NCBI RefSeq assembly: GCF_037902255.1
Contig: NZ_CP147990.1
Location: 3,690,001-3,722,000 of the forward strand
Reading direction: 5' to 3'
Length of the DNA: 32,000 bases
Source: Candidatus Electrothrix sp. GW3-4
GTDB lineage: Bacteria; Desulfobacterota; Desulfobulbia; Desulfobulbales; Desulfobulbaceae
Shown here: in pieces, positions 3,004 through 31,724 of the stretch
Layout: every line of letters begins with the position of its first letter
Numbering within the stretch: position 1 is the stretch's first letter
Notes under the pieces: generated by a model
What the model was told of the DNA's origin: nothing
What the model saw: only the letters and a program-made list of their open reading frames with translations
Database searches by the model: none
Made by a program: the position numbers and the translations under genes

Positions 3004-5730
3004 ATGGAATTGCTCGCAGTCTGGGGAATAGGCAAGGCGGTTTTGCCCTTTTTTCGCCCCATCCTGGAAACCATCGCCAAGGACGTGGCCAAGGATGCCG
3101 CCAAGAGCTACGTGGGCAAGTGCTTTAAGAGCGTCTTTTCGGTCATCCACAAGGATGCCCTGAGCAAGGCCACCGGTCTGGCCCTGAAAGAGCTCCTCGT
3201 CCTCATCGAAGACGAGTTCATCCGGGCGGATATCGAAGAGGAGCGGCTGCCCACCTGGACCGAGGACCTGCGCCGTTTTGTCGAGCAGGACCGGGTCTGT
3301 CAGGCCATTGCCGATCTCTTTCTCCGGCCTGAGGCCATCCCGGAGCCGGGCAGCTTTGCCCTTGCCTGGCAGGAGCTTGAAGGTGCCCAACCCCTGCCGG
3401 ACGGATTCAACTGGAAGTACATCAGCAGGCGTTTCTCGGCCAAGGTCAAGGAGATTCGTCATTCCTCTCCTGAACTCCGGGAGACCTTCGAGTCCCTGGC
3501 CAAGGCCCAGGACTCCGCAGCCCTGCAGGAGCTGGCCGGTCTGCCGCCCGGTTTCAATCTGGATACCTACCGCGAGGCCCTGTTCGAGCGCTACGGCAAG
3601 CTGGACTTTGCCAGCCTGGATGTCACCGGGCCCTACTATGATAATGTCCGTCTCTGGAAGGTCTTCGTGCCCCAGTCGGTCCGGGAATGCCATGAGTACG
3701 ACCCGCAGCTGCTGGAGGTCCCCAAGGAAGAGCTGCAACGCCAGGCCGAGGCGGGCGAGCTGGACCCGGAACAGCTGGCCGAGTCCGAGCGCTTGCATGA
3801 GGAGCGCAGGCGGGCCTATGTCAACCAGCCGCCGCGCCCGGTGCTCGAAGTCGCCAACGATACCGCAAGCCAGCGCCTGCAACGCCTGGTCATCCTCGGT
3901 GATCCCGGTTCGGGCAAGTCCTGCCTCCTGCAATACCTAGCCCTGGCATGGGCCAAGATCGACGATCCCAACCAGCGCTACACCGCCCCCCTCCCCCTGC
4001 TCATCGAGCTGCGGGCCTATAACCGCTGGCCATGTCCCAACGGCAAGGGCTTTCTCAAGTACCTGCACGAGTCCTCCACCTGGCATCGGCTCAATCAACA
4101 GACCCTCCATCATCTGCTCGGTCAGCCGGGCCGCGTTGTCCTCCTGTTGGACGGGCTGGACGAGGTCTTTGACCCGGTGGAGCGCGAGCAGGTGGTCAAC
4201 GATATCCACCGTTTCAGCAACGAGTACAAGCAGGTTCGCATTGTGGTGACCTCGCGGGTGGTGGGCTATAGGTCCAAGCGCCTGCGTGATGCTGAGTTCC
4301 GCCATTTCATGCTCCAGGACCTGGATAAGGAACAGATCAGCAGCTTTCTGGAGAAATGGCATACGGTCACCTTTGACAAGCTGGAGGAAGGCGCGACCAA
4401 GCGGGAGCGGCTGGCCAAGGCCATCGAGCGATCCAAGTCCATCGGCCAGCTGGCAGGCAATCCCCTGCTTCTGACTATGATGGCCATCCTCAACCGCAAC
4501 CAGAAGCTGCCTGACGATCGGGTGGACCTGTACCAGCAATGCTCCCGCCTCCTCCTCCATCAATGGGATACCGAACGGGCCCTGGGGGATTTCCCCGGCC
4601 TGAGCGAGGAGATCGGCCTGCGGGAAAAGACCACCATCCTCCGCACCGTGGCCTATGCCATGCAGACGCACCAGGCCGAGAACACGCGGGCCAACTATAT
4701 TGATGGCCAGGCCCTGGAGAAGCTGATTGAGGAGTACCTCCATACCGAGTTACGTTTTGAGCAGGCACGGGCCGTGGCCCGGGCCTTGGTTGAGCAGTTA
4801 CGAAGGCGGAACTTTATCCTCTGCTACCTGGGTGGAGACAGCTACGCCTTTGTCCATCGGACCTTTCTGGAGTATTTCTGTGCGGCCGAGATCGTCCATC
4901 AGTTCAATGTGGCCAAGACGCTCAGCGAGCAGGATCTAATTGATTTGTTCGATAAGCACTGTGGGGACGATGACTGGCGCGAGGTGCTGCGCCTGATCTG
5001 TGGGCAGATTGATGAGAAGTTTGCCGGACGAATTATTGCCCATCTGACGGAACGGGTAGATATGGAAGCGTGGGATGGAGAAATGCCGTTGCCGGAGTTG
5101 GTGCTGGCGGTTTGGTGCTTGAGCGAAGTTAGAAATTTAAATAAAATTCAGGAGAAGATAGGAGGAGACCTGCTGTTAAAAGTTGTTGGCTGTTTTTTAA
5201 GAGGAACAAGAGGAAATCATCGTCTTGCTTGGCAACTGCTTGCAGCGGCTAAGGATATTGGCACTGTATGGCCAGGAAAATTCCGATTTGATTTTATATT
5301 GCAATACCCTGTAGAGTGGTGGGAATTTCAGGTCACATGGCCTCAATTTTTAGCGGCTGTTTTCAAGCAACGCCGGTGGATAGAACAACTTGCCGGTGTG
5401 GAAAATAATTTTATTCGATCAGGTTCTTTTTTTACTTTAAATCAATACTGGCCTGATGAGAAAGCTTATCAGCTTTTTAAAGAGTTTTCTCGTTTCGATG
5501 GAGCAGCAGCTTCATTTTATGGAGGCAAGCATTCCAAGTTTGGTAAATTTATATTTGAACGTGTTTTATTGTATCATGATCCTCGCAATCCCATCCCCGT
5601 CGAGCACATCCAACAAGCCGCAGAAGAAGCCGGTATTCCCCCGTATAAAATCGACGAAACCGTGCGCTCTCTTTCAGAGCACATGGGCTGGGACATCACC
5701 AAAGGCAGCGAGGCCGGGAAGCTGGCATAA
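3004..5730 (+). CDS. NACHT-domain STAND NTPase (bacterial NACHT, candidate anti-phage / conflict-system protein)
   Basis: 908-aa ORF. Walker A LVILGDPGSGKSCLL at about 3898-3921. Walker B VVLLLDGLDEV at about 4135-4167. GNPLLLTMM motif typical of the NACHT/winged-helix region. The ~290-aa helical N-terminal region and the C-terminal region are unassigned. Confidence 0.85.
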   Translation: MELLAVWGIGKAVLPFFRPILETIAKDVAKDAAKSYVGKCFKSVFSVIHKDALSKATGLALKELLVLIEDEFIRADIEEERLPTWTEDLRRFVEQDRVCQAIADLFLRPEAIPEPGSFALAWQELEGAQPLPDGFNWKYISRRFSAKVKEIRHSSPELRETFESLAKAQDSAALQELAGLPPGFNLDTYREALFERYGKLDFASLDVTGPYYDNVRLWKVFVPQSVRECHEYDPQLLEVPKEELQRQAEAGELDPEQLAESERLHEERRRAYVNQPPRPVLEVANDTASQRLQRLVILGDPGSGKSCLLQYLALAWAKIDDPNQRYTAPLPLLIELRAYNRWPCPNGKGFLKYLHESSTWHRLNQQTLHHLLGQPGRVVLLLDGLDEVFDPVEREQVVNDIHRFSNEYKQVRIVVTSRVVGYRSKRLRDAEFRHFMLQDLDKEQISSFLEKWHTVTFDKLEEGATKRERLAKAIERSKSIGQLAGNPLLLTMMAILNRNQKLPDDRVDLYQQCSRLLLHQWDTERALGDFPGLSEEIGLREKTTILRTVAYAMQTHQAENTRANYIDGQALEKLIEEYLHTELRFEQARAVARALVEQLRRRNFILCYLGGDSYAFVHRTFLEYFCAAEIVHQFNVAKTLSEQDLIDLFDKHCGDDDWREVLRLICGQIDEKFAGRIIAHLTERVDMEAWDGEMPLPELVLAVWCLSEVRNLNKIQEKIGGDLLLKVVGCFLRGTRGNHRLAWQLLAAAKDIGTVWPGKFRFDFILQYPVEWWEFQVTWPQFLAAVFKQRRWIEQLAGVENNFIRSGSFFTLNQYWPDEKAYQLFKEFSRFDGAAASFYGGKHSKFGKFIFERVLLYHDPRNPIPVEHIQQAAEEAGIPPYKIDETVRSLSEHMGWDITKGSEAGKLA
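5658..5730 (+). repeat. Direct repeat copy 1: the last 24 codons of the NACHT gene
   Basis: AACCGTGCGCTCTCTTTCAGAGCACATGGGCTGGGACATCACCAAAGGCAGCGAGGCCG... recurs at 6311-6385. Confidence 0.9.
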
Positions 5731-5818
5731 GGGCGAAAAATTTTCTCCCTTACTGTTTCTGTGCTATAATGAAGAATTAGCTGGAGTATGACCAAAAAGA
5801 AAACTGTGGAGCAACGTC

Positions 5819-6286
5819 ATGGAATGGGCTGAAGTCATAGGCAACCCCCTTTTGCAGAATCTTCCCTTCAAGATCGAGCTGAACCGCTTCGGCAAAATCC
5901 TCATGAGCCTGGCCTCCAATCAGCACGGACGCATCCAGGGCCGGATGGCTGCGAATCTTGTCAATAAGCTGCCCAACGGTGAGGTCATCACGGAATGCTC
6001 TATCCAAACCTCGGAGGGAGTCAAGGTGGCCGATGTGGTTTGGGCCTCGGATGAGTTCATCCAGACCTTTGCCTATGAAACCCCGTATCCCAAGGCCCCG
6101 GAAATCTGCATTGAGATCGTTTCCACGTCAAACTCCAAGGCGGAAATTACCGGCAAGGTGGAACTCTATCTGGCAAAGGGTGCGCAGGAAGTCTGGGTAG
6201 TCTATGAGGACGGCAGAATTACGACCTTCAGCCATATCGGGGAAATCAAAAAAAGCTCCTTGGTCCCTGATGCGCAGAAGCTCTAG
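5819..6286 (+). CDS. Uma2 family (DUF820) restriction-endonuclease-like protein
   Basis: 155 aa. The segment PEICIEIVSTSNS...KVELYLAKGAQEVWVV matches the PD-(D/E)xK-type core of Uma2/DUF820 proteins. TGGAG lies upstream of the ATG. Confidence 0.75.
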   Translation: MEWAEVIGNPLLQNLPFKIELNRFGKILMSLASNQHGRIQGRMAANLVNKLPNGEVITECSIQTSEGVKVADVVWASDEFIQTFAYETPYPKAPEICIEIVSTSNSKAEITGKVELYLAKGAQEVWVVYEDGRITTFSHIGEIKKSSLVPDAQKL

Positions 6287-6310
6287 GTGCCAGACATTCG
6301 TTAACGTCTC

Positions 6311-6385
6311 AACCGTGCGTTCACTTTCAGAACACATGGGCTGAGATATCACCAAGGGCAGCGAGGCCGAGAGGTTTCCGCATAA
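6311..6385 (+). pseudogene. Orphan copy of the NACHT gene 3' end (direct repeat copy 2)
   Basis: It translates in frame as TVRSLSEHMG*DITKGSEAE..., against ETVRSLSEHMGWDITKGSEAGKLA* in the intact gene. About 6 mismatches in the first ~58 nt: 5 synonymous plus TGG->TGA. Confidence 0.85.
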
Positions 6386-6688
6386 TCAAAAGAACGCATA
6401 AATAAGGGTATTGCGCACCTCGACGATCTTTCTCCATTCATAGGGGGATAACGCTTCAGCACAGGACCAGGAAGGTCGCTATCCAGAGCTCTCTGCCAGG
6501 AGGAGGGAGAGAGACGGACCCCAGGCCTGCCGCCCTGCCCCCTCATCCCCCCCCCGAAAAAAAGAACCCCACACGCTTTCCCCTTGAACTTTCCGAAAAC
6601 ATACGATAGTTGTCTATACTTCTCTCGACTCTTTCTTCCGCCAATTCCGGCTGGCAACAAACAATACAATGGCTTTTGCTACACTATA

Positions 6689-8519: not shown

Positions 8520-8589
8520 TTATACACCAACAAGGCATCGGGCATTGCAAAAGAGCGCATATAATCAATTCGTCCCCAGAGGAGAAGCC

Positions 8590-10561: not shown

Positions 10562-11155
10562 ATGATCATGTCGCTATTGAGCAATCTTTTTGGTTGGAAG
10601 AAACCCTTGCCGGAGGCAAAGCAGAGGGAACTGGCAGCCTCGCTTCTTCAAGAGGCACAAGCACTTGCAGCGAATAAGCCGAAAAAAGCGCTTTCCCTGC
10701 TTCGTCGCAAAAGTAAACCCGCTTATGATGTACTGCGCATCGGAGGGGCGATGCATGGCGAATTCCGCAGTCTGGTCGTGAGGATACGGTCAAGACGGGA
10801 GCAATGCCCATTCCTTCCTTCCACTGCGGTGGAGGTAATCTGTTGGGATACCTGGCAGGATCCCATGTTCCACGACATCGCTGATCGCACCCGCAAAACA
10901 GAGGCCGAGGTCTTGTATATCCCCCCATCGCCCAAGCGAAACCCTAGAGACGCAATGGCCGAGCTTGAGGCCTTGCAGATGCTGTACGATCCAGAGGTGG
11001 GCGTGATGACCATTGGTGAAAAAGGGGTGTTCCTGCGCTGTTCGCTGATTTTGGCAGCGGTAGGTAACCTCCCGGATGATGCTGAAGAAATCATTCAGGA
11101 TATGTTGGATCAGGCCAAGGTTCAGGGACTGAAGGTCGGGTGGATTACGGTGTGA
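10562..11155 (+). CDS. Hypothetical protein (the start may be the ATG at 10568)
   Basis: 197-aa ORF with core-like GC content. AGGGGAG lies just upstream. No recognisable domain. Its 3' end is duplicated at 12763-12858. Confidence 0.55.
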   Translation: MIMSLLSNLFGWKKPLPEAKQRELAASLLQEAQALAANKPKKALSLLRRKSKPAYDVLRIGGAMHGEFRSLVVRIRSRREQCPFLPSTAVEVICWDTWQDPMFHDIADRTRKTEAEVLYIPPSPKRNPRDAMAELEALQMLYDPEVGVMTIGEKGVFLRCSLILAAVGNLPDDAEEIIQDMLDQAKVQGLKVGWITV

Positions 11156-11210
11156 TTCTAAGCTGGCTTTTGACAGAAATATTCTTTAGCTGTCCTCAGG
11201 CCGGTTGTGG
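11118..11210 (+). repeat. Direct repeat copy 1: the last ~38 nt of the 197-aa ORF plus ~55 nt of downstream sequence
   Basis: AGGTTCAGGGACTGAAGGTCGGGTGGATTACGGTGTGA...AGAAATATTCTTTA...GTTGTGG recurs at 12763-12858 at roughly 80% identity, with a 1-nt indel. Confidence 0.85.
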
Positions 11211-11262
11211 CCGGGGATTCCAAAGTATCCACCCTGCCAACCCACCAGGTAAAATCAACCCA

Positions 11263-11312
11263 TTGACTTTAAATATAGCTATGCTATGCTAAGATCAAAA
11301 TAATGATCTTAG
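11263..11312 (+). promoter_or_regulatory. Candidate sigma70-type promoter plus a palindromic operator/RBS hairpin upstream of the ATPase gene
   Basis: TTGACT at 11263-11268, a 16-nt spacer, then TATGCT at 11285-11290. Perfect palindrome CTAAGATC-n8-GATCTTAG at 11289-11312, overlapping the AGGTGA ribosome-binding site. Confidence 0.35.
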
Positions 11313-11321
11313 GTGAAAAAC

Positions 11322-12758
11322 ATGAAGAAAGTCTCAGCAGAACAAGTGATTAAACGTCTCAAGATTGAAAACCCTTGGTGGGAAACACGAAAAATACCAA
11401 CGGCCTATCTTGCGTTTAAGCCTCGATCTTACCTTGAGCTTTTCTACCCTTTAGTTCAGACCAAAAAAATTCGACGAGCAACGGTCTTGATGGGGCCGAG
11501 ACGAGTTGGCAAGACCGTAATACTCCACCATACTATACAGAACCTCATTGACAGTGGTTATGACCCCAACAAAATAGGATATTTCTCTGTAGATCACCCC
11601 ATTTACAATGGATTAGGCCTAGAGGAATTACTTGAACTTTTTTCTGCGGCGACTGAAGCTAACTATCACGAGGATGAGTGCTACATCTTTTTTGATGAAA
11701 TACAATATCTCAAGAATTGGGAAAATCATCTTAAACTTCTTGTAGACCGTCAGCCAAACTTAAAATGTACCGTGTCTGGGTCTGCTGCGGCAGCATTGAA
11801 ATTAAAAAGCTCAGAATCTGGAGCAGGAAGATTTACAGATTTTCTTCTGCCGCCATTAACATTTCACGAATATCTGGAGCTTTTAGATAAAAATAATCTG
11901 GTTATACCACCAAGCGAAGCGAATGGTTTTTTCAAACCACGCAATATAGAAAAATTAAACGAAAGTTTTATTCACTATCTTAACTATGGAGGATACCCGG
12001 AAGTTATTTTCTCCGACATAATCCAATCAGACCCAGGTCGTTTTATCAAAAGTGATATTATCGACAAAGTTCTTCTGAGGGATTTGCCGGGTCTGTATGG
12101 TATTCAAGATATACAGGAACTCAACTACCTTTTTACAACACTAGCTTTTAACTCATCAAACGAAGTGTCCTTGGAAGAACTATCCAAAGGATCAGGTGTA
12201 GCTAAAAATACGATAAAAAAATACATTGAGTACTTAGAAGCGGCTTTTCTTATTAGAACAGTTCATAGAATAGACAGAACAGCTAAGCGCTTTAAGCGTG
12301 CCAATTTTTTTAAGGTTTATTTGACTAATCCGTCTATTCGAAGTGCCTTATTTTCTCCTGTTACTCATTCGGATGAAGCTATAGGGGCTCTCTCGGAAAC
12401 AGCTATATATTCTCAATGGTTTCATTCCGACACCTTACTCCATTATGCTCGATGGAAAAACGGAGAGGTTGACATCGTTCACTTGAACAAACAATTAAAA
12501 GTCTCGTGGGCTATCGAGGTTAAATGGACGGATAGATTTTTCACCAGACCTCATGAGCTGAAGAGTCTTATTCAATTTTGCCACTCAAATAATGTTACAG
12601 GGGCTGCTGTAACGACTATGACAAAATCAGAAAAAGTAACCGTTGAGAATGTTAATTTTGATTTCATCCCCACAAGTTTATATTGTTATACAGTCGGCTA
12701 TAACATCGTAAAAGGTAAACAAAATATAAGAGAGGGGCTAACCAGCGGAGCAACCTGA
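11322..12758 (+). CDS. AAA+ ATPase of the COG1373 / DUF4143 family (an alternative GTG start is at 11313)
   Basis: Walker A LMGPRRVGKTV. Walker B YIFFDEIQYLKNWE. C-terminal GEVDIVHL...WAIEVKW resembles a PD-(D/E)xK core. GC content is low relative to the neighbours. Confidence 0.8.
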   Translation: MKKVSAEQVIKRLKIENPWWETRKIPTAYLAFKPRSYLELFYPLVQTKKIRRATVLMGPRRVGKTVILHHTIQNLIDSGYDPNKIGYFSVDHPIYNGLGLEELLELFSAATEANYHEDECYIFFDEIQYLKNWENHLKLLVDRQPNLKCTVSGSAAAALKLKSSESGAGRFTDFLLPPLTFHEYLELLDKNNLVIPPSEANGFFKPRNIEKLNESFIHYLNYGGYPEVIFSDIIQSDPGRFIKSDIIDKVLLRDLPGLYGIQDIQELNYLFTTLAFNSSNEVSLEELSKGSGVAKNTIKKYIEYLEAAFLIRTVHRIDRTAKRFKRANFFKVYLTNPSIRSALFSPVTHSDEAIGALSETAIYSQWFHSDTLLHYARWKNGEVDIVHLNKQLKVSWAIEVKWTDRFFTRPHELKSLIQFCHSNNVTGAAVTTMTKSEKVTVENVNFDFIPTSLYCYTVGYNIVKGKQNIREGLTSGAT

Positions 12759-12762
12759 CCGC

Positions 12763-12858
12763 AGGTTCAGGGGCTGAAGGTCGGGTGGGGTTACGATGTG
12801 AGCCTAAGGTAGCTTTTAGTAGAAATATTCTTTATTTGTCTTTTAGCACAGTTGTGGG
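12763..12858 (+). repeat. Orphan direct repeat copy 2 of the 197-aa ORF 3' end and its downstream region
   Basis: It reads QVQGLKVGWGYDVSLR*, against KVQGLKVGWITV* in the intact gene. It lies between the ATPase and NYN genes. Confidence 0.85.
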
Positions 12859-13025
12859 CGCATATCAGGTGGTTTCGGCTTGTTTTTCCTTGGGGTGGTG
12901 GTAATGTCTTGCTGTCGCGAGAAGATGATAATTTGATAACCGGGAAAATAACTCCAGCTATAGGATGATATCCTATCATTGTTTTCAGGTTATCCATACT
13001 GTTAGAAAAACAAATAGGAACACTC

Positions 13026-13832
13026 ATGGTATCCCCACGATTAGTTGCAAAAATAGAAACAGAAGAGCCGACTCTTAGTTTGGCTGTTTTAATTGATGCT
13101 GATAATGCTCAGGCCGCTGTGATCGAAGGTCTACTTGCAGAAATTGCTAGATTTGGCGAAGCCACCGTAAAACGCATCTACGGTGACTTCACAGCACCAA
13201 CAAGTGCATCATGGAAAAAAGTTCTACAAAAATATGCCATTAAACCAATCCAGCAATTTGCCTACACAACCGGAAAAAACGCAACCGACAGCACAATGAT
13301 TATTGATGCAATGGATTTACTTTACACCCGTAAATTTAATGGCTTCTGCCTCATTACAAGCGATAGTGATTTCACCGGCCTAGCTATGAGAATACGCGAA
13401 GAAGGTCTAACTGTTCTTGGTTTTGGTGAAAAGAAAACTCCAATGGCTTTCCGTAACGCCTGCCATAAATTTATATTTACAGAAGTGCTTCGACCCACTC
13501 AAGAAGATGAACAAAACGACTCCCCCCAGCTAAGTGAAAAGCATAAAAAATCCTCAGAACCTCAAGCCTCTTCTTCGCCACCTCCTTCAAACAACATATT
13601 TCCTGAAAAATTCATTCTCACAGCACTTGATCAATCAACAGATGATACTGGTTGGGCACAACTCGGAACATTTGGTAGCTACCTAACTAAATTGCAACCC
13701 GATTTTGACTCAAGACTTTATGGTTACAAAAAACTCTCTGATTTGGTTAAGGCCAAAAATAATCTCTTTCAAACTGAAGAAAGAGAAGCACCAAGTGGAA
13801 ATCAAAAAATTCTTTATATCAGGGCAAAATAA
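13026..13832 (+). CDS. NYN (LabA-like) domain protein with a C-terminal OST-HTH/LOTUS domain
   Basis: LAVLIDADNA...KRIYGDF...GKNATDSTMIIDAMDLLY...CLITSDSDFTGLAMRIREEG (NYN acidic residues). C-terminal GWAQLGTFGSYLTKLQPDFDSRLYGYKKLSDLV (OST-HTH). Low GC content. Confidence 0.8.
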   Translation: MVSPRLVAKIETEEPTLSLAVLIDADNAQAAVIEGLLAEIARFGEATVKRIYGDFTAPTSASWKKVLQKYAIKPIQQFAYTTGKNATDSTMIIDAMDLLYTRKFNGFCLITSDSDFTGLAMRIREEGLTVLGFGEKKTPMAFRNACHKFIFTEVLRPTQEDEQNDSPQLSEKHKKSSEPQASSSPPPSNNIFPEKFILTALDQSTDDTGWAQLGTFGSYLTKLQPDFDSRLYGYKKLSDLVKAKNNLFQTEEREAPSGNQKILYIRAK

Positions 13833-16092: not shown

Positions 16093-16173
16093 AATTTACA
16101 AAAAAACACGTTATCATTGGCTGACACAGAGCCCTACGCCTTTTTCCTGAGACAAAAACAGCCCGACCGACTT

Positions 16174-18230: not shown

Positions 18231-18251
18231 GTTGCCCTTTCGCAGCGCTTT

Positions 18252-19224: not shown

Positions 19225-19244
19225 TCTTCAATAATTAGAAAAAA

Positions 19245-19556
19245 CTATTTTTCCTCGTATAATTCCCGGTACAGTTTTGCCGCACAATCAGGACAGATAC
19301 CGTGGCTGAATTCCGCCTCAGAATGTTCGCGTATATAGGACTCGATCTGACTCCAATAGCCCTTATCGTCTCGTATTTTTTTACAGGAGGCACATATTGG
19401 CAAAAAACCGCTTAATATCTTCACCTGAGACATAGCTTCCTGCAATTTTTGCGTTCGTTGCTCGACAAGCTCTTCCAACTCATCCTTATATTGACTGAGC
19501 TCCTTTTCAGCAGCCAGCCGCTTTTTCATTTCATCCAAGGAGTTCATCACAATATA
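19245..19556 (-). pseudogene. C-terminal fragment of the IS-interrupted Cache receptor (coiled-coil plus CxxC...HGICPxC module)
   Basis: ...[92 protein letters not shown]. The first ~21 codons of the tracked ORF (19245..19619) read out of the IS end. Confidence 0.8.
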
Positions 19557-21421
19557 AAGGGTGTTGAAAAGTACCCCTGCATAGAGCAATTTCAGTTGTC
19601 CGAGATGCTCAATAAGCATTTTTTTCGTTTGTTAGTGTCACTGCAATCTGATGTCGAGCACTTTCCAGGCGGAATTCAACCTTTTTCAAAAAGCCACTAT
19701 GGGCAAGGCTCTATTTTTTGGACAAGCCGACTGTCAGAAACAGCAAAAATGAACAAACGGGTATTTTTGTAGCTGTAATAATTTAGATTGTTGTTTTGGT
19801 CCTTCTGCTATGCTGCCATTTTGAAGAGTGGCAGTTGCGGTGACTTTTTAGCAGGTATTTTTTTGCGGGTTCCTATCATTTTCAACAATAACAAGGAAAT
19901 ACTGCTGAGCGTACATCGAGCTGTGATCGCGGACTGACCGCGAACCCGAACGGTTTCAAGGCCGGTTTGATGTTTTAACAGGTTGAAAGGTCGTTCAGAA
20001 TTTTTGCGAATATCGTGTGCCTCCTGTATCTGCTCGACATGGTAAGGTATTCGCTGGAAAAAGCCTCTGTCTAACGGTATGCATCGACATTGCGGACAGC
20101 TTCCTTTGAGAAGACATTCACCTGTATTTGCAGCACATTTATACTCGTGATGATTCCCTTCGACGCCTGCATACTCCATAGGAACAGAACATTCATCATG
20201 GCAGAAAACAGTGCCTTTGACAGCATCAACATTATCCGGTGTAGATACTGTAGAACAGGGTGGAGTTGTCACGTATACACCTGTTTTATTGTACAATGAT
20301 CCGTCATTGTCATGATAGGCGGTATCGGCGGTGATGAGTTTCATCTTAACCCCCATAGCCTGCGCCACATCGACCAAAAGCGAAAGAAAGTGACTATCAT
20401 GGTGATTTGCCGGTGCAAGCAAAGATATGATCGGAAAACTATGATCAGTTTCAGCGTCAATTGCAGTTAACGTATGCAGACGATAGCCGACTACGTACAC
20501 AGATTTGTCACGCTTGTTGCGTCGTTTTCCACAGTCGCTGTCGAGATCATTGTAAATGCGTATATTTTGACCATTGATATTCAATGAAGCCAGGGGGATT
20601 TTACATTCATTGGCCAGTTCGGTAGAGTCCACTCCGTGCAGGATATGGTCACCAAGCATCCCGGACTGCAAAAAATGATGCAAAATATAAACCGTAATAT
20701 TAATCTGTTGGACAAATGTGAGGGAATTACGGAATTTGCTAAGCTGAGTATGGTCGATCATTGTTTTTTCACGCAATGACAATCCGATAAAGGCGCGATT
20801 CTGTTTGCGGTCAAGGCCGAGGTATTCTTCATCACAGAATTTTCGGTAGCTGATTTCTGGATACTTGATCGTCTTGAGCAGTTCGGCACGGAACATGTTG
20901 TGAGGGAAAAAGTCCCGCATAGCAGGACTATAGCCGTCATAAGCTAACAGGCGATTGATAATTTCGTTGTCAAGCAGCTGGTCGATAAACTGGAGCTCTT
21001 CATCTTTGATATATTTGGCGAAACGCCTTTCGCCAAAAAGCTTTATGATACTGTTATTTTTTGATTCATTGACAATATCGGCCATCTGATCAAGGCTGAT
21101 AATCCCCTTTGTCGGAACCTGTTGCTCCACGCCGAGCAGCTGATCTGGGGTGGCTGAAATATCCTGCTTGAAATCATACTCGCCCGCGACCTGCGCGAGG
21201 ACTTTTCGAGAGATTTCCTTTTTGGTCTTACGGTTCAGCCGGTTCCAATTAGGATAGTTTTCCTTAAGCTCTTTTTGTACGAGACGTTTGATATTTTTAT
21301 TATGCATAATGCCTGAAATGGGTAACGAATTAACATTATTAACTTTTCGTCATTATACAGGGTTTTTTCGACTTAAGCAACTGTTTTTGTGTAATATTGA
21401 AGTGTTCTTTTCAACACCCTT
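19557..21421 (-). mobile_element. Insertion sequence, 1865 bp, with 18-bp terminal inverted repeats and a 5-bp target-site duplication
   Basis: Left end AAGGGTGTTGAAAAGTAC (19557-19574). Right end GTTCTTTTCAACACCCTT (21404-21421), which is the reverse complement AAGGGTGTTGAAAAGAAC; 17/18 match. ATATA flanks both ends (19552-19556 and 21422-21426). The element encloses a single transposase ORF. Confidence 0.85.
19808..21307 (-). CDS. DDE transposase (IS4/IS5/IS1182-type superfamily; exact IS family not assigned)
   Basis: 499 aa. Candidate catalytic regions: ILHGVDSTELA, KLITADTAYHDNDG, and a C-terminal RKNSERPFNLLKHQTGLETVRVRG block typical of DDE_Tnp_1-type enzymes. Confidence 0.8.
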   Translation of the reverse strand: MHNKNIKRLVQKELKENYPNWNRLNRKTKKEISRKVLAQVAGEYDFKQDISATPDQLLGVEQQVPTKGIISLDQMADIVNESKNNSIIKLFGERRFAKYIKDEELQFIDQLLDNEIINRLLAYDGYSPAMRDFFPHNMFRAELLKTIKYPEISYRKFCDEEYLGLDRKQNRAFIGLSLREKTMIDHTQLSKFRNSLTFVQQINITVYILHHFLQSGMLGDHILHGVDSTELANECKIPLASLNINGQNIRIYNDLDSDCGKRRNKRDKSVYVVGYRLHTLTAIDAETDHSFPIISLLAPANHHDSHFLSLLVDVAQAMGVKMKLITADTAYHDNDGSLYNKTGVYVTTPPCSTVSTPDNVDAVKGTVFCHDECSVPMEYAGVEGNHHEYKCAANTGECLLKGSCPQCRCIPLDRGFFQRIPYHVEQIQEAHDIRKNSERPFNLLKHQTGLETVRVRGQSAITARCTLSSISLLLLKMIGTRKKIPAKKSPQLPLFKMAA

Positions 21422-22131
21422 ATATAGAAAGACAGCAGGAGAGTAACCGCAATAATAATAAATGAAATACAGAGTAACCCCTTTGTCAGATGAGCTATCT
21501 CATCGTTGATTTCCTCAAAAAAAATACCCGTGCCAATAACCCAGCCCCAAGGTTTGAAGAGTTTCACATAAGAAAGCTTGGGAACAATGTGTACAGGCCC
21601 CCTTGTCCATTTCCAGTAATATTGAGCATATCCTCCGTCCTTACTCCTTGCCAGAGCAATGAATTCCTTAAACAGATATCGGCCTTCTGAATCGGTAAAA
21701 GTGGACATATCCTTACCCTCCAGTCGCCTTAAACGGGGATGCATGATCATGGTTGAGTGGGTATCATTAATCCAAAAATACCCTCTTCCTGCAAACCCAT
21801 AACGAATTTCCCGTATCTGCTCTATCGCCATCTTTTGCCCAAGCTCAAGGGAAAGCTCACCAGACGTTACCAGCTGATTATATTGCCGTAACATACTTAT
21901 AACGGTCTGAACCTCACCTGAAATCAACGCTTTTTTCTGGGCAAGAAGATTATACTTAACAACAGGCAGGGCAACGACAAAAAGGATGACAACAAAAAGA
22001 AGAATCGTCAGGACAGAAGGGAGGACAATGCGAATCATCTCCTTTTTATACAGCTGACTCGTCCCATCAATCATGATACGCTCGCGTACTCTGGCAGCCA
22101 CCTCTGCTATATTAGACACACTCTTCCTCAA
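21422..22131 (-). pseudogene. N-terminal fragment of the IS-interrupted receptor (TM1 - single Cache domain - TM2)
   Basis: TM1 IRIVLPSVLTILLFVVILFVVALPVV. Cache-like GYFWINDTHSTMIMHP...YYWKW...KPWGWVIGTGIF. TM2 LLCISFIIIAVTLLLSFY. The tracked ORF (to 21373) then runs into the IS end and stops. The true start codon is uncertain (TTG at 22131 or downstream). Confidence 0.8.
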
Positions 22132-26504: not shown

Positions 26505-26722
26505 CACCTAACACATAATGAACAATGCTGTTACACGAGCAGAAAGAGACAAGTGAAGCTCTCTGCTTGAAGTACAAAGACTGCGGACGGTGAGCTGCTT
26601 CAGCCTCTCGCAGGAGCCGGGCCAACTTCACGGCCTGATTGCCCTTCACTGAGCCAAATGCCGGAGGATGATTTGGGCTAACTAATCAGACCGCAAACTG
26701 ACACCCTCTAAAAGGCAGCAAC

Positions 26723-27490
26723 TTATGTCGAAAGAAATCTGTCTTCTTGAGGGGATAGTATCTGCTGTAGTAGCATCGGAAGCATAAGAATACTGCAATA
26801 TACAGTCAAATTGCTGAATCTAAAATCCGAGGCAGGAGCTATGACAAGATAAGGCAGCCAGTATATCACCCCTAACAAGAGGACAAATAAGTATCTTCTG
26901 TAGTTCTCTCCGAGCCGTTCTTTGTAGTAATGTATTAAAAAGAGCTGGAGAAAGATCAAAACGAAATAGACCCAAACCAAATACAGAGGCGTTTTCGTCA
27001 GGAACCAGTTGGCAAGCCTTGCTGCCGCATTTATTGCCTTTGGATGGTGGAACTCAAGGCCTTTTGTCAAATAATGATCAAAGACAGTGACCTCATATGG
27101 ACATATAATCGGTTTTTTTATTCCAAGCAGGTAAGACAGCATCCTGCCCCGAATCTTTAAGTAGGCTTCAGGATATTGCAGGATTAACCGGATAAAGTCT
27201 TTCTTAAATGTTTTGTCTGGAAATGATTCTTTCCAGATGCTCCATTTAATATATTCCAACGAGAGCATAGTTGGGGCGTAAGGAATATACATTTTCTTGA
27301 TCTGTTCAACCGTAAGCGGCTCAACAAGCTCCTTGGCTAGCGATTCAGGAATAAGGTTTTGTTCCAGCTCTGCCGACATCCCCCATAGGTCAAGCATGAG
27401 AGAAGAATTCTCAAGATGGTATATTTTGTTTTCTTCTTTTACAAGAGTAGCTGTTATCCAATTGTTTAACTGAATGCTTCCATACAACAT
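26723..27490 (-). CDS. Membrane protein, probably the C-terminal part of a frameshifted polytopic (GT-C / polymerase-like) protein
   Basis: 255 aa, low GC content, C-terminal TM helices. It comes into frame with the upstream ORF if the A8 tract (T8 on the + strand, 27519-27526) gains one base. Confidence 0.55.
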   Translation of the reverse strand: MLYGSIQLNNWITATLVKEENKIYHLENSSLMLDLWGMSAELEQNLIPESLAKELVEPLTVEQIKKMYIPYAPTMLSLEYIKWSIWKESFPDKTFKKDFIRLILQYPEAYLKIRGRMLSYLLGIKKPIICPYEVTVFDHYLTKGLEFHHPKAINAAARLANWFLTKTPLYLVWVYFVLIFLQLFLIHYYKERLGENYRRYLFVLLLGVIYWLPYLVIAPASDFRFSNLTVYCSILMLPMLLQQILSPQEDRFLST

Positions 27491-27501
27491 TATTGCGGTT
27501 G

Positions 27502-28092
27502 CTATGATGATTCCTGTATTTTTTTTATTGCGCTGCCTTGGATAAGCGTTGAGAAAAGATAGACACTATACGGAACCACACAAACAATGGCATTGTGCCG
27601 AACAGACATCCCGTAAAAAAAAAAGAGGAATGATGCCATCAGAAGCCACTTGTTTCTTGTGGTTTCAAAGGTGAAAAGCAGGGCGATAGACATGGAGAGA
27701 GAAGCAAGCATTGAAACATCCTTCCATATAACGCCGTTCATGAAAAATATCGGCGGAAACAGTCCAAGAAAGAGGATAAAGACTGCTCTGTGAATGGTCT
27801 TTGAAAAGAAAAATCTCCCCAGAATATAGAGGGAGGCGTAGTAAACGGCATTATGGAATATCAGCATTCCTTGCTGGCCATGGGTGATCTTATTGAGGAT
27901 GCTCCAAAGATACACCATGGAGGGCGGATACCAATTGCTGATATATTCTGGATGCAGTGCCTCATGCCACTGATTGACAGAGTCCACTGACATAGCACCA
28001 GGATAGAAGATGTAGATCACCGTCAAGACGAGGACTATGCTCAGGAAGGCATCAGCAGGGACAACTTTTTTTAATGATGGGTATATTTTCAT
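27502..28092 (-). CDS. Membrane protein, probably the N-terminal part of the same frameshifted polytopic protein
   Basis: ~196 aa from the ATG at 28092, with 5-6 TM helices. The loop motif YPGAMSVDSVNQW follows TM1. It ends 15 nt after an A8 run. A C8 tract lies 7 nt upstream of the start. Confidence 0.55.
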   Translation of the reverse strand: MKIYPSLKKVVPADAFLSIVLVLTVIYIFYPGAMSVDSVNQWHEALHPEYISNWYPPSMVYLWSILNKITHGQQGMLIFHNAVYYASLYILGRFFFSKTIHRAVFILFLGLFPPIFFMNGVIWKDVSMLASLSMSIALLFTFETTRNKWLLMASFLFFFYGMSVRHNAIVCVVPYSVYLFSTLIQGSAIKKIQESS

Positions 28093-28398
28093 TGCCAAAG
28101 GGGGGGGACGAAAAAAGAATGGTGATGCTCATGAGATTAAAGTTGTCCTCGAATAGCTCCTGGGCTCCCAAAAACAGCCACTTAAAAAACGCAAAATGGG
28201 GCTACAAGCTTATATGGGGTTCACTTTAATCCCCCTTCATATATAGATATAAAGGATAATTAAGTGTATAACTCGAGTTACTTACCCCTTGGCGCCACCC
28301 CTGTCAAGAGAAAATTTCCAAGCCAGAAGATCATCCTGTCCAGCTGGAGCCCCCCTAGAAACAACCAAACACACGTTCCATTTCCCGCATATTTCCCA

Positions 28399-28427: not shown

Positions 28428-28489
28428 ACTCGACAGACTCTTATTTCAAGAGCGATGCCATACGGTTGAACCCTAAACAAAGCCCCCTG

Positions 28490-29257
28490 ATGCTCCTCGA
28501 AGTAAAAAATATGACCCATTATTTTGGAGGACTGCGGGCCGTGCATGGCTTTAACCTCCAGATTGATCCAGGCCAGATCCACGGCCTGATCGGCCCCAAC
28601 GGGGCGGGAAAGACCACTGTCTTCAACCTGATCACCGGGGTGTACACGCCCACCGAGGGAACCCTGACCCTTGCAGGAAAAAAAATCCGGGGTAAGGAAC
28701 CCCATCACATCGCCTCAATGGGCATCGGCAGGACCTTCCAGAACCTGCTCCTCTGGCGGCATATGAACGTGCTGGATCATATCCGACTGGCCCATTATTC
28801 CCAGCTCAGCTACGGCCTGTTCGGGGCCTTTTTCGGCACCCCGGCCTGCCGACAGCAGGAAAAAAAGGTCAAGGAGCATTGCTACCGACTCATGGAGACC
28901 TTTGATATCAGCCAGTTTGCCGACCAGATCGTGGGCAGCCTGCCCTATGGGGCCCAACGCCGGGTGGAAATGGCCCGGGCCATGGCCACCAACCCAAAGA
29001 TCCTCTTCCTGGACGAACCCACAGCAGGCATGACCCCAGATGAGCTGGTCAGAATGATTGCAATTATCCGTCAGGTTCACCGGGAATTCGGGGTGGCTAT
29101 CTTCCTTATTGAGCATCGGATGAAATTTGTCATGGAGCTCTGCGACAGCATCCAGGTCCTGGTCTTTGGCGAAGTCATCTCCCAGGGACCACCGGAGTCC
29201 ATTCAGAACGATCCCAAGGTCATTGAAGCCTATCTCGGTACAGAGGATATTCATTAA
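28490..29257 (+). CDS. livG: Branched-chain amino acid ABC transporter ATP-binding protein LivG
   Basis: LLEVKNMTHYFGGLRAVHGFNL...GLIGPNGAGKTTVFNLITG...LPYGAQRRVEMARA...LFLDEPTAGM. I preferred the ATG at 28490 over the TTG at 28466. Confidence 0.88.
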   Translation: MLLEVKNMTHYFGGLRAVHGFNLQIDPGQIHGLIGPNGAGKTTVFNLITGVYTPTEGTLTLAGKKIRGKEPHHIASMGIGRTFQNLLLWRHMNVLDHIRLAHYSQLSYGLFGAFFGTPACRQQEKKVKEHCYRLMETFDISQFADQIVGSLPYGAQRRVEMARAMATNPKILFLDEPTAGMTPDELVRMIAIIRQVHREFGVAIFLIEHRMKFVMELCDSIQVLVFGEVISQGPPESIQNDPKVIEAYLGTEDIH

Positions 29258-29970
29258 TGCAGCTTGTCGTTGAAAATCTCACTGTTTCCTATGGCAATAT
29301 CCGGGCTCTACACGGGATCAGCTTTTCCGTGGAGCAGGGCGAGATCGTGACCATCATCGGGGCCAACGGGGCGGGCAAAAGTACCACCCTCCGGGCTATC
29401 TCCCGAATGATTCCAGCAGAAGCGGGATCAAAGGTAGAATTCATGGGCCAGGATATCCTCAAATATCCAACCGACAAGGTGGTGTCCCGGCTTGGTATCT
29501 CCCATGTGCCGGAAGGCAGGATGATCTTCGGTAATCTTACCGTGACTGAGAATCTCACCCTGGCCGCCTTTGCCCGTAAGGATAAGGAGGCGGTGAACAA
29601 GGACCGTAAATGGGTCTTTGATCTCTTTCCCCGTCTGGAAGAACGAAAAGACCAGTTGGCTGGGACCCTGAGCGGTGGAGAGCAACAGATGCTGGCCGTA
29701 GGCCGGGCCTATATCAGTGGCCGGAAGATTATGCTCCTGGATGAACCTTCTATGGGGCTTGCGCCCCTGCTGATGCTGGATATGTTCGAGTCCCTGAAGG
29801 AGATCAACCGGACCGGAACCACTATCCTGCTGGTGGAGCAGAACGCCCGGCTGGCGCTGAAGTTTGCTCAGCGCGGTTATGTGCTGGAGAACGGGAAACT
29901 GGTGTTAGAAGGTAAGGCCGAGGGGCTGCTGGATGATCCGGCGGTGAAAAAGGCGTATTTGGGGGCGTGA
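29257..29970 (+). CDS. livF: Branched-chain amino acid ABC transporter ATP-binding protein LivF
   Basis: LTVSYGNIRALHGISF...IIGANGAGKSTTLRAIS...LSGGEQQMLAVGRA...LLDEPSMGLAP. The start overlaps the livG stop (TAATG). Confidence 0.9.
   Translation: MQLVVENLTVSYGNIRALHGISFSVEQGEIVTIIGANGAGKSTTLRAISRMIPAEAGSKVEFMGQDILKYPTDKVVSRLGISHVPEGRMIFGNLTVTENLTLAAFARKDKEAVNKDRKWVFDLFPRLEERKDQLAGTLSGGEQQMLAVGRAYISGRKIMLLDEPSMGLAPLLMLDMFESLKEINRTGTTILLVEQNARLALKFAQRGYVLENGKLVLEGKAEGLLDDPAVKKAYLGA
29821..29970 (+). repeat. Direct repeat copy 1: the last 50 codons of livF
   Basis: The 150 nt recur at 31575-31724 with 14 differences (about 91% identity). Confidence 0.95.
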
Positions 29971-30105
29971 ATGATCAGACTCTTGAAGCGCGTACAGGTG
30001 AGTCAAAAAAAATAACGTATCAAATTTGTTATATATTGAACATTGATCAGTTAGCTTTGTCACTCGACAGGAACAGCAAAAAAATAGGAAGAAGAGGAAC
30101 GCCGC

Positions 30106-30690
30106 ATGAAAACTTTCAAACCAATTATTGTCTTTATACTTATGCTTCTGGTGGTGGATTCCGCAACCGCACAGGAGGTGCAGAGTGTAGTGCGAAGTCC
30201 TCTGGGCGGTATAGCTGTCGGCCCTTCAGGGCTAGCAACTGCTGTAATACATACCCGACCTTACTGCTGCCCATCAACCGCACTGGAAGTATATACTGAT
30301 GAAATAGTAGGAGAGGAGAATCTTCAATGGGTGCTGTTTGGATTCAGCGTCCCGATAGAAAAAAGCATGAGGGAAATATCCGGGGTTGAGGTATGTTATG
30401 AGATTAAGTCTGATCTGCCAGGACGGACATATATCTCCCAGACAAGATTAACTGATATGAGTACCCCTGATGCAGCATATGTGCAGGTTGATGACAGCAC
30501 AGATCGTACAGAACTCGGCCCGCAATGCTATATAAGCAACGGCCATTTTAAGCCTGACGGTTCCGTTGCTTTGCATCTGAAAGTCGTCTTTGGAGATCCC
30601 GATGATACAATTACGATAGGCAGCACGAGGCTGCTTATAACTCATTCTTCGCCGCCGCTTGTAGCTCCTATGATGCTGCTTCTGGACTGA
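30106..30690 (+). CDS. Secreted protein of unknown family, paralog A (194 aa)
   Basis: Signal peptide MKTFKPIIVFILMLLVVDSATA|QE. Conserved PYCCPSTALEV, EVCY, ISQTRLTDMSTPDAA, GPQCY. GAGGAA ribosome-binding site. Low GC content. Confidence 0.75.
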   Translation: MKTFKPIIVFILMLLVVDSATAQEVQSVVRSPLGGIAVGPSGLATAVIHTRPYCCPSTALEVYTDEIVGEENLQWVLFGFSVPIEKSMREISGVEVCYEIKSDLPGRTYISQTRLTDMSTPDAAYVQVDDSTDRTELGPQCYISNGHFKPDGSVALHLKVVFGDPDDTITIGSTRLLITHSSPPLVAPMMLLLD

Positions 30691-30749
30691 CTTGGAAAAA
30701 AGAGAAGTAGAATCCGGTTACTCTATTCATAGAAAAGAATCATTCCACA

Positions 30750-30772
30750 GGAAGCGAACTGCTTCCCTTTGT
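30750..30772 (+). terminator. Weak stem-loop between the two paralogs
   Basis: GGAAGC-gaact-GCTTCC followed by CTTTGT. The stem is short and the U-tract poor. Confidence 0.3.
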
Positions 30773-30838
30773 CAAAAAAACAACTGGTATTATCAGGTAA
30801 CGATAAGAGCTGAAAAACAAGAATAAGAGGAGAACAGC

Positions 30839-31378
30839 ATGAAGATTTTATTTAAATCAATCGTCGTCATCGCGCTTATGATGTCAGCGGCAGGGTCTGC
30901 AACAGCGGAGGAAGTGCAAAGTATAGTGCAAAGTCCTCTGGGCGGTATAGCTGTCGGCCCTTCGGGACCGGCAAGTGCTGTGATATATACCCAACCTTAT
31001 TGCTGCCCTTCAACGGCACTTGAAGTACGTGCCAATAGCGTAGTGGGTGAGAATGATTTTCAATGGGTGAATTTCGGCCTTAGTCTTCCTATAGAAAACA
31101 ACATGAATGCAATATCCGAGGTTGAAGTTTGTTATCAAATTATATCTGCCCAGTCTGGAAGCACATATATCTCCCAGACAAGATTAACTGATATGAGTAC
31201 CCCTGATGCAGCAACAGTGAAACTTGATGACGGAACTGATCGCACTGATCTCGGCCCCCAATGTTACGTGACAAATGGTAACATTACCCCTGAGGGGACT
31301 ATTACGCTAGCACTGAAAGTCGTCTTTGGCGATACTGAAGATGCAATTATTATAGGTAGTACCAGGCTGCTGTTCTGA
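30839..31378 (+). CDS. Secreted protein of unknown family, paralog B (179 aa)
   Basis: Signal peptide MKILFKSIVVIALMMSAAGSATA|EE. Roughly two-thirds amino-acid identity to paralog A by eye, with the same four conserved Cys. AGGAG ribosome-binding site. Confidence 0.75.
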   Translation: MKILFKSIVVIALMMSAAGSATAEEVQSIVQSPLGGIAVGPSGPASAVIYTQPYCCPSTALEVRANSVVGENDFQWVNFGLSLPIENNMNAISEVEVCYQIISAQSGSTYISQTRLTDMSTPDAATVKLDDGTDRTDLGPQCYVTNGNITPEGTITLALKVVFGDTEDAIIIGSTRLLF

Positions 31379-31574
31379 TTTAAACATAAGCGGAGCCCTC
31401 CTCACAAATTCTGTCAACATTAACCAGAGAATCTTTAAACTGACACCGGATGAGTGATCGCCGAATCCTCCTCTGTCTCGTGCGAGACTTAATGCTTGCA
31501 GCAATGGGGTACCGAAAAAAATAACGGGTGGATTATTCAAAATCCAGATAGAAATTAACCAGGCATCTTGCTCC

Positions 31575-31724
31575 ACTATCCTGCTGGTGGAGCAGAACGC
31601 CCGGCTGGCGCTGAAATTTGCTCAGCGTGGTTATGTGCTGGAGAATGGAAAACTGGTCCTGGAGGGTAAAGCCGAGGACCTACTGGATGATCCGGCGGTG
31701 AAAAAGGCGTATTTGGGGGCCTAA
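31575..31724 (+). pseudogene. Orphan livF 3' fragment (direct repeat copy 2)
   Basis: It encodes TILLVEQNARLALKFAQRGYVLENGKLVLEGKAEDLLDDPAVKKAYLGA*, one amino-acid difference (G->D) from livF residues 188-237. There is no upstream livF sequence, start codon or RBS. Confidence 0.9.

Follow-up and report, generated by a model that had tools for sequence, protein, structure and literature searches.

The question raised by this locus is how three genes on one bacterial chromosome each came to be followed by inserted cargo and then by an orphan copy of their own 3′ end. The stretch analyzed (the window) spans 32,000 nt, positions 3,690,001–3,722,000 of NZ_CP147990.1, from the cable bacterium Candidatus Electrothrix sp. 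GW3-4; L numbers denote loci and contigs used for comparison. The original prediction, made from the sequence alone, described an intact gene, cargo, and an orphan 3′ end at three loci, and we found all three where they had been placed: at a NACHT NTPase gene (P1), at a conserved hypothetical gene, h197 (P2), and at livF (P3), with repeats of 62, ~97, and 148–153 nt, respectively. The explanation we favor, to which we give about an even chance, is that these orphan ends, here called stumps, are footprints of homology-anchored illegitimate recombination between sister Electrothrix lineages, either akin to homology-facilitated illegitimate recombination (HFIR) or of Campbell type. We infer both the recombination pathway and the direction of transfer.

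Orphan gene ends at P1, P2, and P3

Once paralogs were set aside, the P1, P2, and P3 repeat pairs were the top direct repeats of the window, and all three scored far above shuffled sequences. At P1, 5658–5719 matched 6311–6372 over 62 nt, gapless, at 89% identity (score 89, against a shuffle maximum of 25). At P2, 11118–11213 matched 12763–12860 over ~97 nt at ~80%, with two 1-nt indels, and at P3, 29819–29966 matched 31573–31720 over 148 nt (153 nt to the stop) at 91%. The cargos were as predicted, with Uma2 and COG1373 genes recognized by Pfam and two secreted paralogs recognized by their signal peptides. The features of the three loci are as follows:

3004..5730, plus strand, NACHT/STAND NTPase gene, the intact gene of P1, 908 aa (Pfam NNH2 and NACHT; also in Logan contig L001)
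5658..5719, plus strand, P1 copy A, within the final 73 nt of the NACHT gene (repeat alignment)
5819..6286, plus strand, P1 cargo, Uma2 (DUF820) PD-(D/E)XK family, 155 aa (Pfam; PADLOC candidate PDC-S03)
6311..6372, plus strand, P1 copy B, orphan NACHT 3′ fragment, 89% versus A, with an in-frame TGA at 6342–6344
10562..11155, plus strand, h197, conserved hypothetical gene (197 aa), the intact gene of P2 (orthologues in L004 and L028)
11118..11213, plus strand, P2 copy A, the last 37 nt of h197, the stop codon, and ~60 nt of 3′ untranslated region (alignment)
11243..12762, plus strand, P2 cargo unit of TTGACT promoter-like box, palindrome, and COG1373 gene (Pfam, PADLOC)
11313..12758, plus strand, the AAA_14+DUF4143 gene itself (COG1373, PADLOC PDC-S01; Pfam, PADLOC)
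12763..12860, plus strand, P2 copy B, orphan carrying a frameshift from a 1-nt insertion (collinear with the right flank of the empty site in L004)
28466..29970, plus strand, intact livG-livF (branched-chain amino acid ABC ATPases), a conserved anchor with stumps on both sides
29257..29970, plus strand, livF (Pfam)
29819..29971, plus strand, P3 copy A, the 150-nt end of livF with its TGA stop (alignment)
30106..31378, plus strand, P3 cargo, two paralogous small secreted proteins (30106–30690 and 30839–31378; signal peptides)
31573..31725, plus strand, P3 copy B, orphan livF 3′ end with a TAA stop, 91% versus A, with nearly only synonymous differences

The way in which the copies differ bears directly on their origin. 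Codon comparison at P3 gave 11 synonymous differences (TGA/TAA counted) and one non-synonymous. Under a model of decay in place, in which the intact copy takes only synonymous changes and the orphan decays freely, ~58% of differences are expected to be non-synonymous, and the observed 1/11 rejects that model (P ~1e-3). With the divergence nearly synonymous only, the two livF copies diverged under purifying selection, the orphan at a time when it still served as a working gene end. Copies A and B of livF also have GW3-4-specific bases in common that three other species lack, which makes them alleles of close sister lineages. The earlier claim that resident and incoming ends stem from different lineages is thus upheld by the purifying-type divergence and has to be narrowed to close sisters. 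When livGF was examined for mosaicism, per-gene identities to four relatives held nothing anomalous. A leftward extension of the livF orphan to 31488, proposed by tblastn, was discarded, the extra 85 nt being not significant at either the nucleotide or the protein level. The corresponding codon comparison at P1, over 62 nt, gave five synonymous differences, one nonsense (TGG>TGA at 6342–6344), and one non-synonymous.

At P2, a relative preserves the site without cargo. In L004, h197 runs straight into the sequence found after orphan B in the window, and the complete A-cargo-B structure recurs in Electrothrix sp. Rat3 (L028/L029) with an identical cargo|B junction. The COG1373 gene is ~97% identical between GW3-4 and Rat3, against ~87% for the flanking core genes, which shows that the cargo gene was exchanged recently and that lineages go on exchanging DNA. 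In L030, from an unrelated deltaproteobacterium, the promoter, palindrome, and COG1373 unit lies between vapC and a response regulator at 79% identity, with no flanking repeat. The palindrome AAGATCAAAATAATGATCTT (11291–11310) has perfect arms and sits between the TTGACT box and the COG1373 start codon; it looks like an autoregulatory operator and is kept in the L030 copy (~4975–4995). A proposal that P2 copy A is the outlier among the repeat copies was dropped, the pairwise identities being star-like at 78–86%. L029, a Logan contig of 1663 nt from the Rat3 sample, consists of the COG1373 cargo, with a 30-nt overlap between its ends that falls inside the repeat; the overlap is compatible with a circle without being evidence of one, since de Bruijn assembly gives the same at any repeat of at least k-1. 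Downstream of the P2 orphan, the window has an NYN/OST-HTH gene (13026–13832) in the place of which Rat3 has an unrelated 286-aa gene (L028, 7851–8711), and between CitMHS and thioredoxin, Rat3 carries a Fic gene in place of the window's VF530 DNA-binding gene (16117–16422). Both swaps are further signs of frequent neighbor replacement.

P1 was seen again, identical, in the independent short-read Logan assembly L001. Its copies A and B share no run of at least 31 nt, leaving no assembly-graph ambiguity. Flanking gene-end repeats were found at 0/9 further metagenome Uma2 loci (10 loci found, nine with enough flank), and in L022 the NACHT end is followed by ~240 extra nt and then by Uma2. Several side observations concern the NACHT gene and its surroundings. 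A promoter-like segment (CTTGAA-N17-TATAGT type) stands upstream of the aminotransferase gene in the window (6552–6626) and upstream of the NACHT gene in two other Electrothrix (L004, 5791–5867; L006, 5101–5175). The NACHT gene thus lies on different sides of this segment depending on the species, and the rne-aminotransferase interval is itself a variable hotspot; in L004, it also holds extra minus-strand open reading frames (ORFs). The last ~800 nt of the window NACHT gene have a GC content of 0.41–0.46, versus about 0.6, and are without homology to the repeat-rich C-termini of L004 and L006.

The two secreted paralogs of P3 are ~70% identical to each other in nucleotides and had no match in Pfam, NCBIfam, or PADLOC. 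Their family is very small, a search of 5.8 billion proteins giving only 26 homologues, most of them in Electrothrix and a few in other Deltaproteobacteria. In Electrothrix sp. AR4 (L077), a paralog pair lies downstream of livF, after Uma2 and an insertion sequence (IS) fragment and directly before ruvA, and no livF stump follows it; the AR4 paralogs are diverged by ~75% at the nucleotide level. This arrangement suggests that in some lineages the P3 cargo is ordinary neighboring DNA. What follows livF was different in all seven species sampled, with ABC-3C-like genes in Electrothrix scaldis, GH31 in YB6, Uma2 in Rat3, an ApeP/SDR/LolA cluster in L081, and PHO4 in E. marina. In E. scaldis, a CTD10 / MC6 / CTD10-DUF2326 cluster (an ABC-3C-type conflict system; L011, 10725–13761) begins 10 nt past the livF stop, and no livF stump was detectable in that locus.

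Stumps in relatives and at the 5′ end of livG

The pattern occurs in at least five further cases in related Electrothrix genomes. The clearest and most informative is in L004, where cmk is followed by a two-gene HEC-02 candidate defense system (an ATPase pair) and an 89-nt cmk stump. The two cmk copies are 98% identical over these 89 nt and then diverge across the last four codons: the intact gene has its last 15 nt and stop as in E. marina (L003), and the stump with its downstream flank is of E. laxa type (L006). Since the intact end is a different natural allele, a donor-derived gene end fits, and target-site duplication cannot give it. The earlier claim that a gene end arrives with cargo from another lineage is borne out here. 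In L002, two FN3-type gene-end fragments surround a PDDEXK_2/Rpn gene; both repeat copies (903–977 and 2144–2218) are fragments, with no intact FN3-type gene attached within the contig, which suggests successive insertions at one site. Rat3 (L016) contributes three cases: fmt followed by a DUF4351 gene and a 39-nt stump, livF followed by Uma2 and a ~35-nt stump, and a brnT/brnA pair between 78-nt repeats.

To gauge frequency, the final 150 nt of each gene were aligned to the next 5 kb of the same strand, with matches counted at a score of at least 34. A first run returned 9/204 gene ends and 0/204 in a control with reverse-complemented downstream sequence. A second returned 10/196 Electrothrix gene ends (eight scoring at least 60) and 2/385 unrelated ones (none scoring at least 60), the unrelated control being 358 kb of viral contigs. 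The structures are thus enriched in Electrothrix, and the lack of enrichment named as a refutation of the original prediction was not observed. About seven of the Electrothrix matches are true stumps, the few others being paralog pairs or one locus counted twice. An apparent instance in L020 was set aside, its repeat being a conserved motif common to two tandem HepT-like paralogs. Stump density comes to roughly one per 20–30 kb of sampled Electrothrix DNA. The cargo consists mostly of fast-turnover genes, namely PDC-S01 (COG1373), PDC-S03 (Uma2), HEC-02, an Rpn-type nuclease, BrnTA, and ABC-3C, and their dominance fits hotspot behavior.

A stump of the opposite polarity was present in the window itself, upstream of the intact livG:

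26518..26639, plus strand, orphan livG 5′ end, comprising the pgpA-livG spacer and ~45 decayed codons, in its ancestral place directly after pgpA
26723..28098, minus strand, cargo between the livG 5′ stump and intact livG, two genes of 255 aa (no Pfam match) and 198 aa (weak PMT_2)

This 5′ stump carries a 21-nt deletion and stop codons, and it aligns with the pgpA-livG junction of E. scaldis at a score of 116, against a shuffle maximum of 27 (tblastn E ~1e-4). The two minus-strand genes are absent from that position in E. scaldis, Rat3, and L081, and are followed in the window by a new promoter-like region and then by intact livG (start 28466/28487). The livGF operon is thus bordered by a 5′ stump to the left and a 3′ stump to the right, in a mirror-image architecture. 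Going by their state of preservation, the two stumps differ in age, the 5′ one being decayed and older, the 3′ one not decayed.

Recombination weighed against other origins

The gene order of the window, by Pfam, runs from RNase E/G, the NACHT NTPase, Uma2, an aminotransferase, cmk, GAF, and two hypotheticals on the left, through AAA_14+DUF4143 (COG1373), NYN, an intervening block, def, fmt, and larC in the middle, to pgpA, the two minus-strand genes, livG, livF, and the two secreted paralogs on the right. Gene calls and Pfam assignments matched the original prediction; the livF product was 100% identical to a GW3-4 protein, and a search with cytidylate kinase returned loci of Electrothrix/Desulfobulbaceae only. 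Pfam scans of the ~50 window ORFs found no tyrosine or serine recombinase, as had been predicted, and none was found in any of the eight cargos known from the window and its relatives. No reverse transcriptase and no IntI were found among the window ORFs, no tRNA or tmRNA in the 32-kb window, and no Rfam RNA match in it. The junctions have no common core and the repeats are gene specific, unlike integron cassettes, and the repeat pairs differ by substitutions of all types, unlike the adenine-confined differences between template and variable repeats of diversity-generating retroelements. The sole transposase in the window is an IS4-like DDE gene (19808–21307, minus strand, 499 aa). As side observations, this element (19808–22131 region) directly adjoins a Cache-domain gene, on the 3′ side of the latter, whose product has 252 aa in the window and 319–334 aa in E. 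scaldis and Rat3, and the adjoining 18200–19800 is of low GC, with small ORFs only and no Pfam match, where E. scaldis has a PPDK-like gene.

Cargos measure 0.3–1.7 kb and are tightly packed with intact genes. Direct repeats flank them, and one repeat overlaps the 3′ end of the target gene, as in an attL/attR pair; across the eight cases, the repeats range from 25 to 153 nt, with no motif common to the cargo junctions. No convincing terminal inverted repeats were found where cargos begin and end; a candidate in L004, an 18-nt pair of 78% identity close to the two cargo ends, coincides with TATAAT-like boxes and probably arose by chance. A search for third repeat copies, the signal of tandem att accretion, found none, and permissive alignments beyond each repeat toward the cargo unit boundaries did no better than shuffles. 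No integrase-bearing element was seen at livF in seven species or at cmk in seven loci, a small sample. The argument of the original prediction against a single site-specific att system therefore stands, on the lack of recombinase, tRNA target, and terminal inverted repeats and on the spread of repeat lengths.

In the explanation we favor, DNA from a sister lineage would pair with the resident chromosome through a conserved gene (NACHT, h197, or livGF; cmk or fmt in relatives), with a homologous crossover there. The other end of the incoming piece, having no homologue, would be joined non-homologously inside the resident copy of the gene's end, yielding an intact gene with a donor-type end, the donor's neighbor gene or genes as cargo, and the displaced resident stump with its resident flank. 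A Campbell-type single crossover of a circularized fragment would give the same product and would be topologically equivalent, the HFIR-like version using linear DNA. As the event would be possible on either side of the anchor, it could leave 3′ stumps (P1–P3) as well as a 5′ stump (livG), and cargo would be whatever adjoined the anchor in the donor, mostly candidate defense genes, PD-(D/E)XK nucleases, and toxin-antitoxin pairs. Rather than the short repeat, it is probably the conserved gene as a whole that acts as anchor.

This reading is drawn from both stump polarities, the range of repeat lengths, and the lack of recombinase, inverted repeats, and junction motif, together with the natural-allele ends, the purifying-type divergence, the empty site, and cargo that is neighbor DNA elsewhere. 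As in HFIR, the left side is continuous with the conserved gene and the cargo|stump junction joins unrelated sequences; the donor lineage differs from the stump lineage for L004 cmk and livF. Where the original prediction invoked homology-guided capture by a 3′ "hook," the homology principle survives, and the livG 5′ stump shows that it is not 3′ specific. Nor need a short hook be the whole of the homology, as an entire conserved gene can anchor, and the unrecognized class of mobile element that was suggested is not needed to account for the loci.

Several observations weigh against this explanation. The cargo|stump join lies 0–24 nt past the cargo stop codon in five of the eight cases, tighter than random non-homologous joins predict. 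Uma2 homologues occur at two different gene ends (NACHT and livF), each with a matching repeat. In L018 and L019, a NACHT-type fragment directly follows Uma2, with another gene upstream (higA-like or sulfatase-like) and no NACHT, so either the stump travelled with Uma2 as a block or later insertions separated the NACHT gene from it. Comparison with L030 allows at most 1–2 nt of microhomology to be deduced at the non-homologous junction of P2. Divergence among the five P2 repeat copies (two A, two B, and one from the empty site) is about even, with identities of 78–86%, so that donor and resident are not assignable at P2. To our knowledge, DNA uptake or competence is not established in cable bacteria. 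The recombination model also does not explain a short related sequence, the R element, that begins exactly where two orphans, those of P1 and P3, end on the right:

6372..6440, plus strand, R element copy 1, ~70 nt long, starting at the end of P1 orphan B, AGGTTTCCG..AAAAGAACG..GTATTGCGC
31725..31800, plus strand, R element copy 2, starting at the right end of the P3 orphan, with a terminator-like hairpin next (31810–31831)

Both copies follow the pattern AGGTTTCCG..AAAAGAACG..GTAT(T)GCGC..CTCCAT, and within the window, the two 9-mers (AGGTTTCCG and AAAAGAACG) are confined to the right flanks of P1 and P3. The gapped score of 38.25 between the copies was reached by 0/2000 shuffles and 1/1972 random window pairs. 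Over 300 nt, the similarity of the two flanks was not significant, and they are related only in their first ~70 nt. The element was absent from every related Electrothrix locus examined; 45 matches in viral contigs were disregarded, being about the chance number for 18 specified bases with a 31-value spacer. The claim that the junctions lack a common core holds across all junctions taken together and fails for the right junctions of P1 and P3, which have this ~70-nt element in common.

Two other origins draw on these same difficulties. The cargos could be dedicated hook cassettes, small circular or linear units of one accessory gene and a short copy of a conserved-gene end that recombine through this short hook alone and make up a distinct, recombinase-independent class of mobile element, which we think rather unlikely. 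Such units would suit the compact cargo with its joins within 24 nt of the stop in 5/8 cases, the nearly invariable co-orientation of cargo and upstream gene, the Uma2+stump block kept in three contexts, the homologous Uma2 at NACHT (GW3-4) and livF (Rat3/AR4) with a matching repeat each, the similar boundaries of the COG1373 unit in the unrelated genome of L030, and L029 as a cargo bounded by its repeat. That overlap of the L029 ends is, however, what a de Bruijn assembler is expected to give at any 30-nt repeat, and flanking repeats are missing from nine other Uma2 loci and from the COG1373 locus of L030, AR4 has the livF cargo downstream of livF with no stump after it, and a livG 5′ stump exists. 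The earlier description of the cargo as a cassette is accordingly not required, with livF paralogs free of a stump in AR4 and Uma2 and COG1373 elsewhere free of flanking repeats. Alternatively, and in our estimate quite improbably, a PD-(D/E)XK protein could home in the manner of mobile ORFs (mORFs), cutting the empty allele so that repair copies the gene together with a recoded, resistant end. Four of the eight cargos do have PD-(D/E)XK-type domains or remnants (Uma2 twice, DUF4143, and PDDEXK_2) and a fifth is DUF4351, the architecture equals that of Glomus and Allomyces mitochondrial mORFs (PMC3630166), and genomes can carry many Uma2 and Rpn copies, both being expanded families (PMC9403480). 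Yet the P3, L004 (HEC-02 ATPase pair), and brnTA cargos are without a DNA endonuclease, most Uma2 loci are without flanking repeats, the Uma2, DUF4143, and Rpn families are not known homing endonucleases, and the livG 5′ stump is not accounted for. Both origins stay in contention on account of the compact joins, the two-site Uma2, the travelling block, and the R element. It would be distinctly unlikely, in our view, that conserved gene ends of Electrothrix are portable landing pads for compact, recombinase-independent single-gene cassettes, often of PD-(D/E)XK nucleases (Uma2, COG1373, or Rpn) or candidate defense genes, that insert through a short recoded gene end of their own, perhaps helped by their nuclease in a bacterial parallel to mitochondrial mORF homing, with the R element (AGGTTTCCG..AAAAGAACG) marking the resident side.

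Intact gene, element, and displaced 3′ end with mostly synonymous differences form the classical signature of integrative elements, and the architecture here matches it. The loci could then be attL/attR elements with a replacement gene end, whose integrase was lost or acts in trans, as in cis-mobilizable elements; the tandem fragments of L002 resemble accretion at one att site. We judge this decidedly improbable, with no integrase in the window, in any of the eight cargos, or at the livF and cmk positions surveyed, cargos that are small and filled with intact genes, unlike decayed islands, at least six unrelated targets that would require as many integrases, and a 5′ stump that is not expected. 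A long target-site duplication made in situ, by fill-in of a staggered break during DNA capture with later divergence of the copies, would account for repeats that directly flank the insert, for an L004 pair that at 98% identity is recent, and for P2 copies about as diverged as orthologues. It is nevertheless very improbable as a general account and largely refuted for P3 and L004 cmk, where the synonymous-only divergence rejects in-situ decay and the intact copy ends in another natural allele than the stump; moreover, the cargos have no terminal inverted repeats and no transposase, a range of 25–153 nt fits no known transposase, and the repeats stop short of the cargo unit boundaries. As for artefact, haplotype concatenation in a metagenome-derived genome, the assembly is of that type, and P3 was seen in one assembly only, with copies that share identical runs of >31 nt. 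This is scarcely credible for structures of which P1 recurs in an independent short-read assembly with no shared run of at least 31 nt and P2 recurs in another species and in its Logan contig, and every stump borders cargo at its left edge and not the remainder of the gene, which a mis-join in shared sequence cannot produce.

Relation to known systems and meaning

HFIR is reportedly known from natural transformation of Acinetobacter, S. pneumoniae, and P. stutzeri, in work attributed to de Vries and Wackernagel in 2002 and in related studies. It resembles the Electrothrix loci in having one homologous anchor, a second, non-homologous junction, no site-specific recombinase, and short foreign segments beside conserved genes. 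It differs in being known from laboratory selections and in usually deleting recipient DNA, whereas the Electrothrix join inside the anchor's end duplicates a stump, and the Electrothrix footprints are frequent and come from the wild genomes of an uncultured lineage. Phage 21 and e14 at E. coli icd, like many tRNA/tmRNA islands, are integrative elements that restore the 3′ end of their target. As at our loci, the element brings a replacement end, the native 3′ fragment is displaced to the far junction, and differences are mostly synonymous, but such elements have a defined core and either encode a tyrosine or serine integrase or rely on one; neither an integrase nor a common core was found here. 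Neisseria minimal mobile elements and core-gene-flanked defense hotspots swap accessory genes by homologous recombination in conserved flanks. Here too, differing accessory genes occupy one position and defense or selfish cargo is enriched; unlike at those sites, where homology lies on both sides and ends are not duplicated, the far flank in Electrothrix is not conserved and a stump is left.

The closest architecture in organelles is that of mORFs with carboxy-terminal duplication, described at fungal mitochondrial atp6, atp9, cox2, and nad3 in Allomyces and Glomus (PMC3630166). There, an endonuclease ORF brings a foreign C-terminus with mostly synonymous change, and the native C-terminus is stranded downstream (PMC3630166). 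The order of gene core, inserted C-terminus, ORF, and native C-terminus is alike, as is the origin of the two ends from different lineages. The mORFs, however, encode LAGLIDADG or GIY-YIG homing endonucleases in organelle genomes, whereas Electrothrix presents a bacterial chromosome, heterogeneous cargo (PD-(D/E)XK genes, an ATPase pair, a toxin-antitoxin pair, and secreted proteins), and a 5′ stump too. By Pfam, the window cargos encode no LAGLIDADG, GIY-YIG, or HNH domain, and two of the three have PD-(D/E)XK domains.

Searches of the literature on cable-bacterium mobile elements and on integrase-independent islands with partial duplications found nothing relevant. The architecture is already known, from integrase-borne elements and mORFs, as is the likely mechanism, from laboratory HFIR. 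What appears undescribed, a judgment drawn from general knowledge and unproductive literature searches, is the combination: about one stump per 20–30 kb, no integrase, both polarities, and defense or nuclease cargo, in a bacterial lineage.

Should the compact-cassette or nuclease-homing origin be the true one, the loci would represent a new bacterial mode of mobility and would give a first function to the very abundant orphan families Uma2/PDC-S03 and COG1373/PDC-S01. If, instead, homology-anchored illegitimate recombination is the true origin, the stumps would be natural, datable scars of one-sided-homology recombination, which has been studied extensively in the laboratory and is rarely documented in wild genomes, and a simple signature, a gene-end stump no more than a few kb away from its parent gene, could map events, donors, and ages in any genome. 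It would also explain how candidate defense, toxin-antitoxin, and nuclease genes are shuffled, free of integrases, beside the core operons of an uncultured multicellular lineage.

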